IMG/VR virus record: IMGVR_UViG_3300035661_000047
Source of the DNA: a virus
Taxonomy: Duplodnaviria; Heunggongvirae; Uroviricota; Caudoviricetes
Direction: 5' to 3' (one strand)
Length of the DNA stretch: 64,000 bases
Below the pieces are notes generated by a model. It searched no databases. It was not told the DNA's origin and saw only the letters and a list, made by a program, of their open reading frames with translations. Positions 3,623 to 60,004 of the stretch are shown here, piece by piece. A program made the position numbers and the translations under genes. Within the stretch, counting starts at the first letter, position 1. Each line of letters opens with the position of its first letter.

Positions 3623-3823
3623 TCAATCAACTCGCAGCAAAGCTGGCTGCGATTTTTGCTCTTCAAGGCGCTTGCGCCCCCATTTTGCAATGATCAGATG
3701 ATCGAACGTTGCATTGTCAGGGATATCCCCAGTGAAGAACGTGTCTAGGAGGCTCTTGTAGTGCTCAGCCTGCTGCTCAGCGTCGATTACACGCTGCTTG
3801 AGCCTTGCAACTGATGCACTCAC
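3623..3823 (-). CDS. hypothetical protein (66 aa)
   Basis: ORF in leftward operon, stop/start overlap with 3820..4095. Confidence 0.4.
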   Translation of the reverse strand: MSASVARLKQRVIDAEQQAEHYKSLLDTFFTGDIPDNATFDHLIIAKWGRKRLEEQKSQPALLRVD

Positions 3824-4095
3824 GATTGCTCCCTCTTAGCTGCTTTTGCAGCCCTTGCGTTCGCCAGAATCTCTGCACGAGTAAGCTTGGCCTCGTCCTT
3901 GATGTCGCTGTCACGGAGCATGATGCACTCGAAGTTGTACCCAAGCATGGTAGGAGGATTAGATGGGTCTATTTCCCAGCCCTCGTCTGATGCCTCAAGG
4001 ATTTGCACAACAAACGATTCGAGGTTGCCAGTCAGAATAGCCTTACTGTTCTTCATTCTCATCCTCCAGTAGCGCTTCTTCCATGTAACTTCCAA
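3820..4095 (-). CDS. hypothetical protein (91 aa)
   Basis: First sizeable ORF downstream of leftward promoter at 4354-4382. Confidence 0.45.
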   Translation of the reverse strand: MEVTWKKRYWRMRMKNSKAILTGNLESFVVQILEASDEGWEIDPSNPPTMLGYNFECIMLRDSDIKDEAKLTRAEILANARAAKAAKREQS

Positions 4096-4214
4096 TGTCC
4101 AGTTGTTCGATTACGGTGAGAAGATCGACAAGAACGTCGTCTCCCCACTCAGGGGCTTCGTCATGATTTCGGGGCACAGATAATACCTCCAGTCAAAGTT
4201 AATGATTAAGAGGT

Positions 4215-4343
4215 ATATCTAAGTCATTGTCTAAGTTATTGTCTAAGTAAACACCTTACTACCTGACTAAATACCCTCTCAGTAAAATAACTAAGTATTG
4301 TCTAAGTAGTATACTTTAGTATTACTTAGAAGTTGTCTTAGTC
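4215..4343. repeat. Direct repeats of TTGTCTAAGT (and inverted ACTTAG copies) - operator/iteron-like array
   Basis: Exact 10-mers at 4227-4236, 4239-4248, 4298-4307; variant TTGTCTTAGT 4333-4342; partial CTAAGT at 4217-4224 and 4291-4296; inverted ACTTAG 4323-4328; AT-rich intergenic region between divergent promoters. Confidence 0.7.
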
Positions 4344-4353
4344 ATATAACTAT

Positions 4354-4382
4354 AGTGTACAGCACGAAGTCAGTCTTGTCAA
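4354..4382 (-). promoter_or_regulatory. leftward sigma70-like promoter (TTGACA-17-TACACT)
   Basis: Minus-strand TTGACA at 4377-4382, TACACT at 4354-4359, 17-nt spacer containing CGTGCTG like the other promoters in this genome; transcription would run through the repeat array into the early leftward operon. Confidence 0.55.
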
Positions 4383-4466
4383 GCCCTGGAGAGGGCCAGT
4401 TCTCATTGTTGAGAATTCCTGCCCGGCAGGGTCCGTCTTCCTGTGCAGGACTGGCCCCGTAGGGGC

Positions 4467-4494
4467 TTGACAATAAATTTTTTCGTGCTACAAT
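4467..4494 (+). promoter_or_regulatory. rightward sigma70-like promoter (TTGACA-16-TACAAT, TGn-extended)
   Basis: TTGACA 4467-4472, CGTGCTACAAT 4484-4494; followed by GGAGGT RBS and ATG at 4523. Confidence 0.6.
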
Positions 4495-4522
4495 TACGGC
4501 TTCTGACACGATGGAGGTAGCA

Positions 4523-4885
4523 ATGAGCAATCATGACAGCTCCACTGCCTCTGTTGTAGTGGTGATGCAAGAGGAAGCCCCAAGCTTCCTGACGAACAGT
4601 GTAGACCTGAAGAAGCTGCACACGGACATCAAACGACACTCCAAAGCCGCCATAGATGCTTTGGTGTCGATGCTAGAGAGTCCTGACCCAAAGATCAAGT
4701 TGACAGCGGCAACGAAGCTGCTAGAATTCCAGGTGTCGGTGGCAAAGGAACTTAGCTCTGACCAGATACAACGCCTCATTGCAGAGGTAAAGCTGGTTAA
4801 GAACCCTAAGAGCAACCTTGTCCCAGTCGAAGAACAGAAGTCTCGGCCTCTCGTGGACTTCACAACAATTCGCTCTGTCGAATAA
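4523..4885 (+). CDS. hypothetical protein (120 aa); terminase small-subunit role not excluded
   Basis: GGAGGT 5 nt before ATG at 4523 (the track start at 4511 lacks an RBS); first rightward gene. Confidence 0.55.
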   Translation: MSNHDSSTASVVVVMQEEAPSFLTNSVDLKKLHTDIKRHSKAAIDALVSMLESPDPKIKLTAATKLLEFQVSVAKELSSDQIQRLIAEVKLVKNPKSNLVPVEEQKSRPLVDFTTIRSVE

Positions 4886-5080: not shown

Positions 5081-5156
5081 GGGCTGTGATTGAGCTGGGG
5101 TTCTTGGCTGCTTTGCAAGCAGTTATCGGTGGGTTCGATTCCCACACGGTCCACCA
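5081..5156 (+). tRNA. tRNA-Ala (TGC)
   Basis: 76 nt; G3:U70 pair (Ala identity element), anticodon stem GCTGC/GCAGT, loop TTTGCAA, T-arm GTGGG-TTCGATT-CCCAC, CCA encoded; weak D stem. Confidence 0.65.
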
Positions 5157-5162
5157 TAATTT

Positions 5163-5238
5163 GCCCCATTAGCTCAGTTGGTAGAGCAACTGCATTGTAA
5201 GCAGTAGGTCGTCCGTTCGAGTCGGACAGAGGGCACCA
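5163..5238 (+). tRNA. tRNA-Thr (TGT)
   Basis: 76 nt; D arm GCTC-AGTTGGTA-GAGC, anticodon stem ACTGC/GCAGT with loop ATTGTAA, T-arm GTCCG-TTCGAGT-CGGAC, CCA encoded; two acceptor mismatches. Confidence 0.8.
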
Positions 5239-5245
5239 AGTCTAT

Positions 5246-5330
5246 GCGGTTGTGGCGGAATTGGTAGACGCGCAGCGTTGAGGTCGCTGTGGAGAAATCC
5301 GTGGAGGTTCGAGTCCTCTCAACCGCACCA
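5246..5330 (+). tRNA. tRNA-Leu (GAG), type II with long variable arm
   Basis: 85 nt; perfect acceptor GCGGTTG/CAACCGC, anticodon stem CAGCG/CGCTG with loop TTGAGGT, variable arm GGAGAAATCC, T-arm GGAGG-TTCGAGT-CCTCT, CCA. Confidence 0.85.
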
Positions 5331-5589
5331 TAACGTGCTTGATAGCTCCAGCTAGTGCAGTAACAGCTAGAGACTGCATGATGAGAATCCATCGGTCGCC
5401 CGTTGGAAACAAAAATCTAGATAAACTCTCAGGTATGCGAGTTAAATAGTTGAGTTGCTGGAGGCTACGGCCAATGAAGGTGACGGAGAGAATACCACAT
5501 GCGGGTAAGGTGTTTATGGATACATGCTAGCCTTCCAAGCTTGAGTAGACCAGATCGTTACTGGCTACCCGCTCCACGAATTCTTTGGC

Positions 5590-5666
5590 GTGACGTTATC
5601 TTAATATGGTAAAGAACTAGACTGTGAATCTGGTAAATATGGGTTCGAGTCAAGCGGTGGGCACCA
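5590..5666 (+). pseudogene. degenerate tRNA-like element (5' two-thirds folds as tRNA-His GTG; T-arm/acceptor disrupted)
   Basis: D arm TCTT-AATATGGTA-AAGA and anticodon arm CTAGA-CTGTGAA-TCTGG fold well; GGGTTCGAGTC T-loop present but its 3' half and the acceptor 3' strand do not pair; ends GGGCACCA. Confidence 0.3.
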
Positions 5667-5673
5667 GAATTGA

Positions 5674-5748
5674 TGCGGAGTAGTTCAGTTCGGTAGAACA
5701 GCAGCCTCATAAGCTGACGGTCGTGGGTTCAAAGCCAACCTCACGCAA
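5674..5748 (+). tRNA. tRNA-Met (CAT), imperfect
   Basis: D arm GTTC-AGTTCGGTA-GAAC, anticodon arm GCAGC-CTCATAA-GCTGA, T-arm GTGGG-TTCAAAG-CCAAC; acceptor has 2 mismatches and no encoded CCA. Confidence 0.5.
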
Positions 5749-5755
5749 CAAGATA

Positions 5756-5830
5756 GGATTCTTAGCACAGCGGTAGTGCGGCGCCCTTACAAGGCGTAGG
5801 TCGTAGGTTCGATCCCTACAGAATCCACCA
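5756..5830 (+). tRNA. tRNA-Val (TAC)
   Basis: 75 nt; acceptor GGATTCT/AGAATCC, D arm GCAC-AGCGGTA-GTGC, anticodon stem GCGCC/GGCGT loop CTTACAA, T-arm GTAGG-TTCGATC-CCTAC, CCA. Confidence 0.85.
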
Positions 5831-5919
5831 GTATTGGCAAAAACACGCAAGTGTTGCTGGTTCGAGTCCAGCCCTGTCCATTCCGGGCGGGTAGACAAAT
5901 CGGTAAAGTCGCCAAGTAT

Positions 5920-5992
5920 GCACCTATCGTCTAAAGGTTAGGACAACTGACTTTCTATCAGTGAATGTAGGGTTCAAGTCCCTCTAGGTGCT
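5920..5992 (+). tRNA. tRNA-Glu (TTC)
   Basis: Acceptor GCACCTA/TAGGTGC, D arm GTCT-AAAGGTTA-GGAC, anticodon stem ACTGA/TCAGT loop CTTTCTA, T-loop TTCAAGT; U at position 37 is atypical; no CCA. Confidence 0.6.
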
Positions 5993-6002
5993 ACAGACAT
6001 AT

Positions 6003-6077
6003 TGGCATATAGCTCAGCGGTAGAGCATCCGGCTGTTAACCGGACGGTCAGTGGTTCGATCCCACTTTTGCCAGCCA
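6003..6077 (+). tRNA. tRNA-Asn (GTT)
   Basis: Acceptor TGGCATA/TTTGCCA (U1-A72), D arm GCTC-AGCGGTA-GAGC, anticodon stem TCCGG/CCGGA loop CTGTTAA, T-arm AGTGG-TTCGATC-CCACT, G73 + CCA. Confidence 0.8.
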
Positions 6078-6083
6078 AAATAT

Positions 6084-6159
6084 GGACAGGTAGCTCAGAT
6101 GGTAGAGCGCCGGCCTGAAGAGCCGGGCGTCGTAGGTTCGATCCCTACCCTGTCTACCA
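6084..6159 (+). tRNA. tRNA-Phe (GAA)
   Basis: 76 nt; acceptor GGACAGG/CCTGTCT, D arm GCTC-AGATGGTA-GAGC, anticodon stem CCGGC/GCCGG loop CTGAAGA, T-arm GTAGG-TTCGATC-CCTAC, CCA. Confidence 0.85.
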
Positions 6160-6160
6160 T

Positions 6161-6236
6161 ATATCTATAAGACAATCGGAAGTCGGCAGGACTCCAAATC
6201 CTTGCAGTTGTGGTTCGAGTCCACAGGGATATGCCA
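6161..6236 (+). tRNA. tRNA-Trp (CCA)
   Basis: 76 nt; acceptor ATATCTA/GGGATAT, D loop AATCGGAA, anticodon loop CTCCAAA (CCA), T-arm TGTGG-TTCGAGT-CCACA, G73 + CCA. Confidence 0.75.
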
Positions 6237-6242
6237 AACAAT

Positions 6243-6319
6243 CTGGGTGTATTGTCAGTTGGTAGACGGCGAGCTTTGGAAGCTTGAGGCCGGTGGTTCG
6301 AGTCCACCCATCCAGACCA
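6243..6319 (+). tRNA. tRNA-Pro (TGG)
   Basis: 77 nt; acceptor CTGGGTG/CATCCAG, D arm TGTC-AGTTGGTA-GACG, anticodon stem CGAGC/GCTTG loop TTTGGAA, T-arm GGTGG-TTCGAGT-CCACC, A73 + CCA. Confidence 0.8.
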
Positions 6320-6442: not shown

Positions 6443-7942
6443 ATGAAAAATACGGAATTCGCGGATGCTGTTGACCGGCTAATCTTCGCACCATGCAGTC
6501 TAAAGCAGCAGCAGATTCTTCTCGATGACGAAACAGATTTGCTGCTTTGCGGTGGTGGTGCTGGAGGTGGGAAGTCCCACACCTGTCTGACAAAGGCGTT
6601 GAAGTACATCAATGACCCCGCAGCGCGTGTAATGATCGTCCGGCGCAGCTACCCTATGCTGAAGCTGTCTGGCGGCCTTGTAGACGAATCTAAGGGCATC
6701 TACACGCACTTTGGCGGGGTGCTGAAGATTCAAGCACTGACCTGGGTATTCCCTAACGGTGCGACGATCCAGTTCGCAGCCATCCCGGATAACCTCGGGG
6801 AGTGGCAGGGCCTGCAAGCGACAAACATTCTTGTTGACGAAGCAGCAGAATTCACCCAAGAAGAAATCTTGTTCTTGCTGTCGCGTCTTCGTGGTGCAAA
6901 GTACAAGGGACACATGAATATCACGATGACGTGCAATCCGTCTCGTGACTCGTTCTTGTATGAGTGGGTTAAGTATTCACTCAATGAAGCTGACGGAATC
7001 CCGCGCAACGGAACAGAAGACATTCGTCGGTATTTCTTCAACGAATCCGGCAAGATGTACTGGGCTGACAGCATTGAAGAGCTTTGGGAAAAGCACGGAG
7101 AGCCGCTTGGCAAGAACCGCGACCCATCAAATGGAAAGATCACATTCCTTCCTAAGAGCTTCAGATTCATCCCTCTCACTGTTTATGACAACCCTATTCT
7201 GCTCAAGAATAACTCTGGGTATCTTGCAAACCTGCTGTCGCAGCCGCGTGTAAATCAACTTCGATACCTTCATGGGTCTTGGACTGCTCGTGCGGAAGGT
7301 TCAGGATTCTTCCGTAGAGAGTGGGTAGAGGTTGTTGACTTTCCCCCGGTAAACCCTGTATCAAAGGTTCGCTCATGGGATTTGGCAGCATCAGTACCGT
7401 CAGAGAGTAACCCAAATCCAGACTGGACTTCCGGTGTAAGGCTGTCTCGGGATAAGTGGGGGTACTACTATATCGAGCACGTAAACCGCTTCAGAAAGCT
7501 TTCTGATGGCGTTATTCAAGAGCTTGTGGAGACTGGACACGACGACGGCCCCCCACCTGAGTGCGCAGTGACAATTCCAAAAGACCCTGGAGCTGGAGGC
7601 GCTGCCGCTAATCGTTTCTTCATGGCGCAACTAGCTGAGAACGGAATTGCTGCAAAGTCTGTACCTATCTCCGGGCACTCTGGGAAGATTGCTAGATTCC
7701 TACCGTTCTGCGCGCTGGCCGAAGCTGGGATGGTGAGGATTGTGCGTGGAGATTGGAATGAAGAATATCTCGCAGAGCTTGAGCATTTTGAAGGTTCTCG
7801 GAATCAGAAAGATGACCAAGTTGATGCCACATCAGACGCATTCAATACCCTCTCACGTCAAGTGCAGCTTCCGACGTTTGCAGTGCCTGTACTTTCACAA
7901 GCAAGTCCTGTACCAACTGTGTATGGCTTGACAAATACGTAA
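6443..7942 (+). CDS. terL: terminase large subunit
   Basis: 499 aa; Walker A LLCGGGAGGGKSH and overall TerL ATPase/nuclease-like sequence; first gene of late operon. Confidence 0.85.
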   Translation: MKNTEFADAVDRLIFAPCSLKQQQILLDDETDLLLCGGGAGGGKSHTCLTKALKYINDPAARVMIVRRSYPMLKLSGGLVDESKGIYTHFGGVLKIQALTWVFPNGATIQFAAIPDNLGEWQGLQATNILVDEAAEFTQEEILFLLSRLRGAKYKGHMNITMTCNPSRDSFLYEWVKYSLNEADGIPRNGTEDIRRYFFNESGKMYWADSIEELWEKHGEPLGKNRDPSNGKITFLPKSFRFIPLTVYDNPILLKNNSGYLANLLSQPRVNQLRYLHGSWTARAEGSGFFRREWVEVVDFPPVNPVSKVRSWDLAASVPSESNPNPDWTSGVRLSRDKWGYYYIEHVNRFRKLSDGVIQELVETGHDDGPPPECAVTIPKDPGAGGAAANRFFMAQLAENGIAAKSVPISGHSGKIARFLPFCALAEAGMVRIVRGDWNEEYLAELEHFEGSRNQKDDQVDATSDAFNTLSRQVQLPTFAVPVLSQASPVPTVYGLTNT

Positions 7943-7956
7943 AACCGTGCTACAAT
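7928..7956 (+). promoter_or_regulatory. internal sigma70-like promoter (TTGACA-17-TACAAT, TGn)
   Basis: TTGACA 7928-7933, CCGTGCTACAATCACA 7945-7960, nearly identical to the promoter at 15845; overlaps the 3' end of terL and precedes the portal gene. Confidence 0.6.
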
Positions 7957-10359: not shown

Positions 10360-10892
10360 AGCAAAATACAATGCTTTCTCGCCTGATGGCGAAGCTCGGA
10401 GCTTCTGAGCCTGTTGTGTCCGCAAGCGTTGAAACCCTTCAGGCAGAGTTTGATGCCTTCAAGGCGTCTTCAGAGTCCGCGCTTGCAGATGCTGCTGCTC
10501 AACTCCAAGAAGTCTCTACCGACCTTGAAACAGCCGTAGCTGCTGTTGCAGAGGCATATGCCAAGGTGGCAGAACTCCAAGCACAACTCGAAGCTGTAAA
10601 TGCCGAGAAGGTTGCTGCCGAAGCTGAATCCGCTGCAAAGCGTCTCACAGCTCGCAAAGAAAAGATTGAAGCTGCTGTAGGAACGTCGAAGTCAGACGCG
10701 CTTATGGCCGCAACTGAATCGCTCGATGACGCAGCGTTTGACGCTGTTGTGTCGGCTCTGAGCCTGTCAGTTGATGCCGAAGGCAAGACTGGTATGTTCA
10801 AAGAAGTCGGCGTAGCTGCTGAAGCTGACGCTGCGAAGGTCGAAGAATCTGCTGAAATGAAGATTCTCCGTGAAAAGTACGGCGCAAAGTAA
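10356..10892 (+). CDS. scaffolding protein
   Basis: 178 aa, Ala/Glu-rich predicted coiled coil, located between protease and capsid genes. Confidence 0.65.
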   Translation: MKQNTMLSRLMAKLGASEPVVSASVETLQAEFDAFKASSESALADAAAQLQEVSTDLETAVAAVAEAYAKVAELQAQLEAVNAEKVAAEAESAAKRLTARKEKIEAAVGTSKSDALMAATESLDDAAFDAVVSALSLSVDAEGKTGMFKEVGVAAEADAAKVEESAEMKILREKYGAK

Positions 10893-10922
10893 GCGCATCC
10901 TCTTTAGCTAAAAGGAAAATCA

Positions 10923-11330
10923 ATGTCTGTTTTCGCAACTGACTCAACTCGCCTGTCTGGCGTCGTAAAGTACGAGTTTGATCCTGCCACTTCATACTGC
11001 CGTGAATCGGTTGTACTGAACGATACTGCTAACCTCAACCTGAAGGTTGGTGCTGTTCTCGGCAAGGTTACTGCCACCGGCAAGTACAAGCTCTCGCTCT
11101 CGGCTGCTGCTGACGGCTCGCAAACTCCCGCTGCGATTATCATCGCTGACGGTCTTGGTCTTTCGACCGACATCGCCCTTACAAGTGGCACTGACGCAAA
11201 GGCAATCGTCCTTGTGCGCGGTCCCGTGATTCTGGCTGATGCTGGTCTGCAACTCGGAACTGGTCATACTGTGGCCTCCGTGAAGACTGCTCTCGCTGGT
11301 GCCGGCCTTCTGGTCGAAACCGCAATCTAA
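10923..11330 (+). CDS. head decoration protein (lambda gpD-like)
   Basis: 135 aa, Gly/Ala/Thr-rich, immediately upstream of major capsid gene in lambda B-C-Nu3-D-E order. Confidence 0.6.
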   Translation: MSVFATDSTRLSGVVKYEFDPATSYCRESVVLNDTANLNLKVGAVLGKVTATGKYKLSLSAAADGSQTPAAIIIADGLGLSTDIALTSGTDAKAIVLVRGPVILADAGLQLGTGHTVASVKTALAGAGLLVETAI

Positions 11331-13916: not shown

Positions 13917-14353
13917 TGGCACTCAGAAACGCATTTGAGAATCTTGCTACAGACGCAACGCTTGTCCAGCTAAAGGACATCGCTCAAGCTATCAACACTG
14001 CGGCAGGGGGTATCCGCGTAGCCGCAGAAGCTCTTAACGCAAAAACAGCTAGCGTGAATACTGGAGCTGTGGCAGGAACTGTTACAGCAGTTATTGACCA
14101 AGACTCTGTGGATTCATTGACGTACATGCTCCAAGCTATTCTTGAGAAAATGCCGTCACTGACAAACAGGGACTTGGTTCGGGCGAGCATTGAAGACGGA
14201 AGCATGAACGCTATCTCCGGGCCGTACTTCGGTGTGAATAATATGAGCGTAGGCGAGGCAACCACAGGGCGACTTGTATACCGTATGCATGAGCCTTGGC
14301 ACTTTTCTAACGCCAGCAGTGCTGGACTTTACAACCAAATTCAGGTAACGTGA
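13916..14353 (+). CDS. hypothetical virion protein
   Basis: 145 aa ORF in connector region, ATGA-type overlap. Confidence 0.5.
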   Translation: MALRNAFENLATDATLVQLKDIAQAINTAAGGIRVAAEALNAKTASVNTGAVAGTVTAVIDQDSVDSLTYMLQAILEKMPSLTNRDLVRASIEDGSMNAISGPYFGVNNMSVGEATTGRLVYRMHEPWHFSNASSAGLYNQIQVT

Positions 14354-15844: not shown

Positions 15845-15873
15845 CTTGACAAAATCAATATGCCGTGCTACAA
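15845..15873 (+). promoter_or_regulatory. internal sigma70-like promoter (TTGACA-17-TACAAT, TGn)
   Basis: TTGACA 15845-15850, CCGTGCTACAATCACA 15862-15877, near-identical to 7928-7956; followed by AAAGGAAG RBS and ATG 15895. Confidence 0.6.
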
Positions 15874-15894
15874 TCACAAACACTAAAGGAAGCG

Positions 15895-44880: not shown

Positions 44881-45171
44881 TCAGTCGTCAATTTCAACAG
44901 TGTAGTCAAGCAAAGCTTGGTACACACGCGGGTCGATTTGGGATTTGTACTCTTCAGCTACACGCTTGCACTCAGCTTCTTTTGCTTTCTTGTAGGCAAT
45001 GAAAGCTGCTTCTGGTGTAGAGAAGCGGTCAAGGCTGTGCGTCTTTCCTTTAATACTAATGGATGCCTTAAACTTCTCTCTTTCTTTGTCCCAGCTCACT
45101 CCAATAGTCAATTCTCCCCTAGCCGCGTTACTCTTTGTCAAGAGTGAGTTAACTGCTGCTGGAACAAACAC
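44881..45171 (-). CDS. AP2-domain DNA-binding protein
   Basis: RGELTIGVSWDKEREKFKASISIKGKTHSLDRFSTPEAAFIAYKKAKEA fits the AP2/HNH-associated domain pattern. Confidence 0.55.
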   Translation of the reverse strand: MFVPAAVNSLLTKSNAARGELTIGVSWDKEREKFKASISIKGKTHSLDRFSTPEAAFIAYKKAKEAECKRVAEEYKSQIDPRVYQALLDYTVEIDD

Positions 45172-45178
45172 ACAAAGC

Positions 45179-45463
45179 TCATGGCAGTAAACCTTGTTTC
45201 CTTTTCAGCAGTATGTCTTTGTCTAAGTCGCCTTCTCCGTAACCAATCTGAGTTCTAGCAAATTCAACAAAGGCGTGGCAGGATTTGAAAGTTGTTGTAC
45301 AGCCAATGTATGTCGGGTTGTTTTTCTGATATCGGCCGCCTACTCTACAACGCTTTGTCATTTCGTGGTAATACCCGCCACCGACAGTAAACACCTTCTT
45401 ACCATCCACTGTAGGCTGATAAGCCCACTCGCCATTCTCATTCTTGAAATCTTCAACAACCAA
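45179..45463 (-). CDS. hypothetical protein (TTG start)
   Basis: GAAAGGAGAAGAGA RBS then TTG; 94 aa. Confidence 0.45.
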   Translation of the reverse strand: MVVEDFKNENGEWAYQPTVDGKKVFTVGGGYYHEMTKRCRVGGRYQKNNPTYIGCTTTFKSCHAFVEFARTQIGYGEGDLDKDILLKRKQGLLP

Positions 45464-45519
45464 TCTCTTCTCCTTTCAAAAAGAAAGCCCGCTACCCGTG
45501 AAGGTAGCGGGCAGCAGCT

Positions 45520-51737: not shown

Positions 51738-51813
51738 TGGCGCGTCTGGTAGGACTCGAACCCACAACCCGTAGCCTAGAACACTCTTGCTCTATCCTTT
51801 GAGCTACAGACGC
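51738..51813 (-). tRNA. tRNA-Arg (TCT)-like, weak anticodon stem
   Basis: Reverse complement GCGTCTG-TA-GCTC-AAAGGATA-GAGC-A-AGAGT-GTTCTAG-GCTAC-GGGTT-GTGGG-TTCGAGT-CCTAC-CAGACGC-G-CCA: perfect acceptor, D and T arms, 76 nt with CCA; anticodon stem has two mismatches. Confidence 0.55.
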
Positions 51814-59331: not shown

Positions 59332-60004
59332 TTTCAGATTTCTCCTTTTCAATTTTGAAAGTGTTGTGCTTGTACACTGGTATCAGGTACGGAAAGAATA
59401 CAAGCATCTGGATTGAGAAGCAAAGTGCAGCGTAGTAGGGATTCACTTGACTCGCACCAACACCACACTAGCTTGAGTAATCTCTTGCTTGATGAATTCC
59501 GCAGCCTTCTCGTGAGATAGTTAGCCTACCTTGTATTGCTGAATTTCATTGCCGACGCGAACGCCTACAAGTAACTCAGGGATAGGCTAAAACAGTTCGA
59601 GCTGTTCCATACTGGTCAGCACGAATGGGACGACGCTTGCCACTCTTGGTCATGAGGGTCGTAGTAACCTCCCATACCATAGCCGCCAAGCTCCATGTAG
59701 AATCCAACGCCAGCTTCGTCAGCGATGAACTCGGCTTCAGAAATCTTGCTCTGGGCTTCAGCGCCCAGTTGTGCAATCTTGTTGATTGCCTCTTTTTGAC
59801 TTAGACTAATTACGTTCCTTTCTAGTGTAGGGCTTTTAACACGTCGTCAGCTATCTCGACAGCTATTGCCCCTACCGACTGATGTGGAGTTCCAGTCGAT
59901 ATAAGGCTCTACATTGCTTCAACTGCCAACTTCTCTCTTAGAGACATACCTAAGTAGTATTTAGTGTCAGTCTCTGATGGGTATATAGGAGGGTTGCTGT
60001 TCAA

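Follow-up and report, generated by a model that had tools for sequence, protein, structure and literature searches.

The primary replication origin of bacteriophage T7 consists of the promoters φ1.1A/B followed by an AT-rich tract. Repeat arrays of the iteron, centromere-like and operator types are known from lambda ori, R6K gamma and R1 parC. In bacteriophage Mu, the c-ner sequence AGCTAGCTAAGT-TTTTAC-ACTTAGTTAAAT, located between Pe and Pc, is presumably the Ner operator; its assignment to the Ner protein is reportedly due to Tolias and DuBow in 1986. The T4 origins oriF and oriG each consist of a promoter and an AT-rich DUE that forms an R-loop (PMC3016281). T4 oriE contains 12-nt repeats, whose role is unproven, and an early promoter, and the T4 origins are found at points of transcriptional divergence and of skew shifts (PMC3016281). 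According to the Felix O1 genome paper (PMC3185647), little is known about how transcription timing and the start of replication are controlled in the Felix O1-like group at large.

The repeat array described here is located in a 64-kb stretch (the window) of the IMG/VR record IMGVR_UViG_3300035661_000047 (Caudoviricetes), the DNA of what looks like a lytic myovirus from a lineage seen only in metagenomes. The array is a genuine, selected, single-locus cis element; its architecture belongs to a familiar class, its motif is new, and the lineage that carries it is uncultivated. The plus-strand genes of the window encode TerL and the portal protein, and the other large ORFs of this strand are consistent with structural genes. 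The minus-strand genes encode PhoH, a ClpP-like protease, NrdAB, NAMPT and PRPP synthetase, as well as the replication proteins PolA, a gp4-like primase/helicase, a second helicase and thymidylate synthase; the replisome gene set (primase/helicase, PolA, helicase) is T7-like. The two gene blocks diverge at the array, the strand switch being at 4.2-4.5 kb. ARAGORN finds ten tRNAs in a cluster at 5081-6319 and an eleventh, tRNA-Arg, on the minus strand at 51738-51813. An extra tRNA inside the cluster, at 5675-5747, is reported by Rfam only (43.9 bits) and not by ARAGORN, and a repeat finder put 5692-5750 together with tRNA 3' halves. The nearest isolates are the Pseudomonas phiPsa374-like and PAK_P1-like phages, with protein identities of only ~40-52%. 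The array region has no match among 50,697 INPHARED phage records (megablast, blastn), the 78-aa and 120-aa proteins encoded on its two sides have no tblastn match among the INPHARED phages, and a scan of GTDB genomes detected no relative.

Table 1. Coordinates of the array, its flanking signals and neighbor genes, and of the promoter–repeat cassettes in the sister clade (clade 2).
Feature	Position	Strand	Description
Leftward promoter, PL	4354..4382	−	sigma-70-type, TTGACA-17-TACACT; −35 4382-4377, −10 4359-4354; predicted start ~4347
Rightward promoter, PR	4467..4494	+	sigma-70-type, TTGACA-16-TACAAT, extended TG; serves the 120-aa gene, the tRNA array and the structural genes
Palindrome TTCTCATTGTTGAGAA	4400..4415		from sequence; centre ~60 bp upstream of the PL start
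GC-rich inverted repeat GGGCCAGTTCT / AGGACTGGCCC	4393..4457		spans the PL-PR spacer
Gene-proximal repeat cluster	4216..4250		3 units, exact 12-bp spacing
Central spacer	4251..4287		37 bp; no exact core; one degenerate GACTAAAT at 4265-4272
Promoter-proximal repeat cluster	4288..4344		4 cores and one degenerate
First leftward early-operon gene	4043..4177	−	44 aa, very acidic; GTG start at 4177
78-aa early protein gene	3820-4056	−	ferredoxin/ACT-like model
120-aa gene	4523..4885	+	divergent; three helices, single HEAT-like repeat
Clade-2 cassette, L029	7150-7300		
Clade-2 cassette, L034	7740-7900		
Clade-2 cassette, L032	7110-7260		
Clade-2 cassette, L033	7805-7960		
Clade-2 cassette, L028	6800-7000		

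Both promoters of the locus are found where the first-pass annotation had placed them (Table 1), and the sequence also bears out its statement that the leftward transcript crosses the array. The array is not, however, located between divergent promoters, as was claimed: PL and PR are both to its right, and the array constitutes the ~170-nt leader of PL, between this promoter and the GTG of the first leftward gene. PL fires into 4178-4347, the lowest-GC and least stable DNA of the window, and is kept in all the relatives compared. GGGCTTGACAA and TTCGTGCT are common to PL and PR (contexts 4354-4386 and 4463-4494). Elsewhere in the window, the structural genes are also preceded by consensus sigma-70-type promoters, and an extended promoter context, CTTGACAAA…CCGTGCTACAATCACA, is present at 7927-7956 and 15845-15874. 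The palindrome upstream of PL is kept as TTCTCA-N4-TGAGAA in L012, L016, L019, L020, L027 and L031, and is absent in L018 and in clade 2. To judge from its sequence and its activator-like position, it looks like a candidate site for a separate dimeric regulator.

The repeats are present at 4215-4343 as first annotated, with TTGTCTAAGT exact at 4227, 4239 and 4298 and having one mismatch at 4333, and so are the CTAAGT cores, at 4219, 4231, 4243, 4291 and 4302, with an inverted copy at 4324. The CTAAG cores of the gene-proximal cluster, at 4219, 4231 and 4243, read tatCTAAGtca, TTGTCTAAGTta and TTGTCTAAGTaa. Those of the promoter-proximal cluster are located at 4291 (AACTAAGT), 4302 (TTGTCTAAGT), 4325 (inverted ACTTAG) and 4337 (TTGTCTTAGT), with a degenerate ACTTTAG at 4314-4320, and the last site of this cluster is centred at ~+9 of PL. 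The central spacer includes ATACCCTCTC (4271-4280), the RNA complement of which mimics a Shine-Dalgarno region. What the units share is the self-complementary CTWAG, flanked on the left mostly by TTGT or TAA and on the right by T. The two clusters are mutually inverted (arms 4214-4239 and 4321-4346), giving a bipartite array with an overall dyad symmetry. From the gene-proximal end towards PL, the spacings between the 7 cores are 12, 12, 48, 11, 23 and 12 bp. When the seven array-bearing lineages are taken together, 23 of the 37 gaps between adjacent cores measure 11-13 bp, and most of the remaining ones are near multiples of this spacing (21-24, 33-35 and 48-49 bp). The array is therefore made of several phased repeats of one motif, as in iteron-type origins.

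Counted over the whole window, TTGTCTAAGT is not enriched (6 copies against 4.0 expected), yet it is strongly clustered, and the signal is this clustering rather than the whole-window count of the 10-mer. Six of the 14 CTAAGT and 8 of the 21 ACTWAG copies of the window are found inside ~125 bp. Outside the array ACTWAG is scarce, the total of 21 comparing with 51±8 expected, an expectation that ignores in-frame stops and codon usage, so that avoidance is not claimed. The 176 bp of 4178-4353 contain 7 CTWAG, the mean in dinucleotide shuffles being 1.1, and 0 of 5000 shuffles reached 7. The array is the only such cluster within the 64 kb. It is at the same time the lowest-GC 150 bp of the window (28.7% vs ~51%) and holds its least stable 100 bp, with a nearest-neighbour energy of −110 kcal/mol compared to a mean of −143±5.8 kcal/mol. 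A local minimum of the cumulative GC skew is located at 4100-4300, and the AT skew flips its sign near 4500.

A second cluster with the same core had been pointed out at 59796-59965. It does contain three CTWAG cores and an 11-mer, CTAAGTAGTAT, shared with the array, but it is absent from the closest relative, which has a different gene directly after the primase gene. The AT-rich tract to which this cluster belongs (59796-60004) is intergenic, lies downstream of the primase/helicase gene and is the second least stable DNA of the window. As it is not conserved in L038/L039 or L040/L041, and as more distant relatives have no such region either, the cluster was rejected as a sister site of the array; it is weak and appears to stand outside any conserved system. 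The ORF after this tract (KEAINKIAQLG…) has no ATG, GTG or TTG start and may begin at an ATT at ~59812. The isolated exact TTGTCTAAGT at 45219 is coding and encodes DLDK (also given as part of FELDKDIL). The gene that holds it, an HNH/AP2-like gene at 44884-45472 (−), is broken by a frameshift, which leaves ORFs of 94 and 96 aa; another HNH/AP2-like copy follows the primase gene in L038, and intact homologues of 231-243 aa are present in the sister clade.

Relatives of the window were gathered via homologues of the 120-aa and 78-aa neighbor proteins. In the close relatives L012, L042 and L043, the 120-aa protein is about 91-95% identical to that of the window. The DNA of L012 and of the window is 96.0% identical in the array and 94.8% identical in the PL region, compared to 83-86% in the flanking genes. 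The length of the array changes between the two by 12-bp units only, and the spacer is identical but for a 1-nt indel. The unit number of the gene-proximal cluster, which is distal to PL, is 4 for L012 and L042, and 3 for L043 and the window. L042 and L043 are sister metagenome contigs, the sequences of which are otherwise identical. All three close relatives carry a ~570-bp insertion between the PL-PR spacer and the 120-aa gene, with a promoter of its own and a small Cys-rich ORF.

In more distant lineages (L016, L018, L019, L020/21, L027 and L031), whose 120-aa proteins are 44-59% identical to that of the window, an AT-rich array is found in the corresponding position, with a conserved TTGACA promoter upstream of it. 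Its motif has diverged to ACTTAGTTATATAACTAAGT in L018, ATAACTAAGT/ATGTCTTAGT in L020, TGTCTTAGACA in L019, TAATAACTAAGTA in L031 and TATATAAC in L016, the motif types among the lineages including TGTCTAAGT, AACTAAGT, GTCTWAGAC and AGCATAGCT. In all 7 independent lineages the consensus promoter is directed into the array. No array is found at this position in the sister clade (L028, L029/30, L032, L033 and L034), in L044 or in phiPsa374. This pattern of presence and absence points to a module that is selected where present, has a quick turnover of sequence, and can be moved from this position or dispensed with there. The exact dimer pattern TTGTCTAAGTNNTTGTCTAAGT gave 13 hits in viral contigs, 12 of which come from AT-rich genomes, where they are tandem 12-nt repeats in unrelated coding sequence; the sole relative among them is L012. 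Beyond the left end of the window, L023 has at 10800-11300 a GC-rich non-coding stretch, dense in GGCGCCTAGGCGCC-type palindromes or hairpins, near a small serine recombinase (resolvase) gene.

That the array is kept above the flanking genes, is phased and is AT-rich supports the general idea from which the analysis started, namely a repressor/operator switch or an iteron-type origin. What stands of it is a selected, cis-acting, single-locus element coupled to a strong, host-type promoter; the geometry proposed for the switch is wrong, and neither a repressor nor an initiator was found. In all likelihood the array acts at the DNA level, as a protein-binding or unwinding element. Its most likely function, which we put forward tentatively, is that of a transcription-activated replication origin in which a promoter is combined with an unwinding element and iteron-like repeats. 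Protein binding, R-loop formation or unwinding, and origin function are what we infer from the observed repeats, phasing, instability, position, conservation, copy-number variation and motif turnover.

Initiation at such an origin might proceed as follows. Host RNA polymerase starting from PL would open the AT-rich tract, or form an R-loop in it, so that this tract would be the unwinding element downstream of the promoter. A phage or host protein bound to the phased repeats would organize or license the loading of the replisome. The replisome loaded would be the T7-gp4-like primase-helicase together with PolA, and the forks would depart co-directionally with the two diverging gene blocks.

Several properties of the locus are those expected of an origin of this kind. 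The promoter is directed into an A+T-rich unwinding element, as in T4 oriF/oriG and in T7. Transcription diverges at the array and the skew shifts there, the GC skew being confounded with gene orientation and hence not independent evidence. The motif diverges among the lineages while position and architecture stay, which fits a co-evolution with a specific binding partner. The low GC content and stability of the array, its uniqueness within the 64 kb, the phasing of its cores, its identity with L012 above that of the flanking genes and the T7-like replisome genes also count in favor of an origin. Other properties speak against an origin: 1) the array is not beside the replication genes; 2) it is absent at this position in clade 2, L044 and phiPsa374, and is therefore not universal in the group; 3) its sites are short (~11 bp) and partly palindromic, unlike classical iterons of 17-22 bp. 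There are no DnaA boxes near the array, TTATNCACA being present in the window only at 14233. No cognate initiator is encoded beside the array, and its neighbors (the 44-aa acidic, 78-aa ferredoxin-like and 66-aa proteins, PhoH, ClpP and the 120-aa HEAT-like protein) match no Rep, O or other DNA-binding family.

The position of the array in the leader of PL is also what an operator would have. A dimeric or filament-forming protein of the phage or the host might coat the phased sites from ~+4 to +130 of PL as an operator or roadblock, and the early leftward operon would then be shut off or throttled in a Cro/Ner-type manner or by a Cox/Apl-type filament, the clusters possibly forming a loop. We consider this, the main rival to an origin, possible but doubtful. 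The array is situated between PL and the first gene, and its nearest site is at ~+9. The core is palindromic, and full palindromes are found in L018 (ACTTAGTTATATAACTAAGT) and in L019 and L029 (TGTCTWAGACA). The phasing by one helical turn would suit cooperative binding on one face of the DNA, and the second conserved palindrome ~60 bp upstream of the PL start suggests that the promoters are regulated. Furthermore, the CTAAGT core and a 13-bp core spacing match the Mu c-ner sequence (NC_000929). In the window, the nearest site spans about +4 to +14, and no site overlaps the −35 or −10 of PL, or PR. On the other hand, the relatives have their first site at variable distances from the PL start, between about +5 and +60. 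The 7-9 sites over 130-170 bp exceed the need of a simple operator. The array contains no pair of 12-bp inverted ANYTARCTAAGT repeats 6 bp apart, only the CTAAGT core being common to it and Mu. No HTH, RHH or Ner-like protein was found, and the conserved proteins encoded next to the array have no DNA-binding folds and occur with or without it.

The search for a protein that binds the array covered the window and 6 kb beyond it, and gave no candidate for a DNA-binding protein or an initiator. Neither the 29 small ORFs of this region nor the neighboring genes have an HTH or RHH match in Pfam or PHROG, and Pfam gave no hit to HTH_35. With Mu Ner as the query, tblastn found nothing better than E ~1 in the window and all the loci, ~7-13 kb of the genome lying outside. 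The products of 4523-4885 and 3623-4095 had been suggested as binding proteins. That of 4523-4885 has a single HEAT-like helical hairpin and no DNA-binding fold; its AlphaFold model gave no significant fold match in Foldseek, and its gene occurs in lineages both with and without the array. The 78-aa product of 3820-4056 is modeled with confidence (pLDDT 87) as a ferredoxin/ACT-like domain with an invariant basic helix, RAEILAxARAAKAAK, and by the same procedure has no significant structural neighbor and no DNA-binding fold. The C-terminal helix of this family, (S/T)RAEILAxARAAKAAK, is invariant, the remaining body being roughly 40% identical, and this invariance suggests a conserved, probably host, target. 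Homologues of the 44-aa protein, 44-57 aa in length, are found in all the relatives. Two further candidates were rejected: the HTH+AP2 protein of clade 2, the window homologue of which (44884-45472) carries a frameshift and has the behavior of a mobile gene of the HNH type, and a wHTH protein encoded beside the primase gene in L040, which has no homologue in the window.

Transcription from a strong promoter passes through the array in every case, which favors a function of its RNA. The array might be an RNA-level element, either a structured PL leader that controls translation or termination in the early operon, or a multi-site decoy for an RNA-binding protein or a nuclease. We regard such a function as improbable. 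The leader folds better than shuffled sequences (z about −3 to −7; −3.25 to −7), and a terminator-like hairpin is present within the L018 array. ATACCTC at the edge of the array (4210-4216) can pair with the Shine-Dalgarno sequence GGAGGTAT (4183-4190) of the 44-aa gene, or alternatively, in the leader RNA, with the Shine-Dalgarno-like GAGAGGGTAT in the central spacer (4271-4280); from the sequence, this alternative pairing may be a translational switch. The number of units differs between sister contigs, and L016 and clade 2 have a hairpin with the same loop and different stems, which are also points in favor of RNA. The folding signal, however, is equal on both strands and hence reflects the dyad symmetry of the DNA, and both the helical-turn phasing and the palindromic cores are properties of double-stranded DNA. 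No compensatory pattern is seen among the 7 substitutions relative to L012, and no Rfam family matches at gathering or relaxed thresholds. In the L018 array, GAGAGGGTATT is present too.

Type III antitoxin repeats are tandem units of ~34-40 nt beside an endoribonuclease toxin gene. The 12-nt units of the array are too short for repeats of this kind: an antitoxin or pseudo-ToxI type is not recognized, the units being 11-13 nt, with no adjacent toxin gene and no Rfam match. By analogy with pseudo-ToxI expansion and CsrB-type sponges, the promoter, repeats and (in some cases) terminator could form a relocatable module that makes a repeat RNA, a sponge for a host RNA-binding protein or a defence nuclease, with the unit number (3 vs 4) and the motif evolving in an arms race. 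Such a module would have been captured as the early-operon leader in the clade of the window. Little weight should be given to this idea.

In the sister clade, the place of the array at PL is taken by a first leftward gene encoding a 231-243-aa HTH/AP2-like protein. A cassette located ~3-4 kb further on contains a consensus promoter, a hairpin, short AT-rich repeats and a terminator. Its repeats are of the GTCTAAGAC or the AGCATAGCT type, and its hairpin, a conserved CCCGCCGAGCGAAGCGAGG hairpin, has the loop AGCGAAGCGA. The cassette sits between converging genes and encodes nothing, the whole unit consisting of the promoter, ~150 nt and the terminator. This composition resembles an sRNA gene, and if the element acted as RNA, the cassette would be a stand-alone small RNA. 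For an operator, there is no downstream gene to control. The lack of coding content suits a cis element that needs transcription better than an operator, and the origin reading accounts for a gene-less cassette of promoter, repeats and terminator. The hairpin with the common loop AGCGAAGCGA, which contains a GCGAAGC mini-hairpin, is also present in L016 at 5700-5750 (minus strand). Its outer stems differ, ACAAAGAAC/GTTCTTTGT vs CCCGCC/GGTGGG, a covariation-like pattern such as might be expected of an element active in the single-stranded form.

The array might also be another kind of DNA site, either a pac/cos-like packaging site for the small terminase or a site for a nucleoid-associated or partition-type protein, which we consider quite unlikely. 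Repeat arrays flank the packaging sites of lambda (cosB) and T7. A distance of ~200 bp separates the array from the 120-aa gene, which is followed by the tRNAs and TerL, and the helical 'DPKIKLTAATKLLEF' motif of the 120-aa protein is, we assume, reminiscent of small-terminase cores. This protein, however, matches no terminase family or fold and is present in lineages that lack the array, and the array itself moves or vanishes between clades. Contigs run through the array and do not end in it. In PaP1, a distant relative, the mapped terminal repeat has converging gene blocks on its two sides and small genes of unknown function around it, a setting different from the divergent promoter region of the array. 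With contigs spanning the array and the PaP1 termini elsewhere, the array was rejected as a genome terminus, and a packaging role is unlikely.

The array is the clearest non-coding control element within the 64-kb window. It occurs once in the window, at the strand-switch point, is coupled to a promoter and is kept better than coding sequence, which makes it a precise and testable candidate for an origin or an early-gene switch. The diverged motifs of the relatives provide a natural series in which the cognate binding protein could be sought. As the architecture is familiar, a specialist would be interested rather than surprised.

The likeness to the Mu Ner operator consists of the CTAAGT / ACTTAG core, two cores 13 bp apart and divergent early promoters. 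One unit of the array, AAATAACTAAGT (4285-4296), fits the 12-mer ANYTARCTAAGT at 11/12 positions, whereas the other units of the window have at least 3 mismatches to it and the dominant TTGTCTAAGT violates the TAR positions. Mu has two repeats in place of the 7-9 found here and is temperate, whereas the phage of the window looks strictly lytic. The iteron and parC-type arrays share with the locus the phased repeats, the two clusters by an AT-rich tract, the rapid co-evolution of repeats and the copy changes by whole units. They differ in that the window has no adjacent Rep, O or ParR gene, in that its units are ~12 bp and not 17-22 bp long, and in that its array is inside a transcribed leader.

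The T7 primary origin resembles the locus in combining a promoter with an AT-rich region, and the phage of the window, like T7, has genes for a primase-helicase of the gp4 type and a polymerase of the PolA type. T7, by contrast, works with an RNA polymerase of its own and lacks a phased repeat array at this origin; the promoters of the window are of the sigma-70 type. Compared with T4, there is no homology of sequence or genes, the replisome is T7-like and not T4-like, the repeats have a palindromic core and form two inverted clusters, and the origin role is read from the sequence. What the locus has in common with T4 oriE/oriF are repeats of 12 bp, as in oriE, and a promoter directed into an AT-rich unwinding element, at a place where the transcribed strand switches and the base skew shifts.
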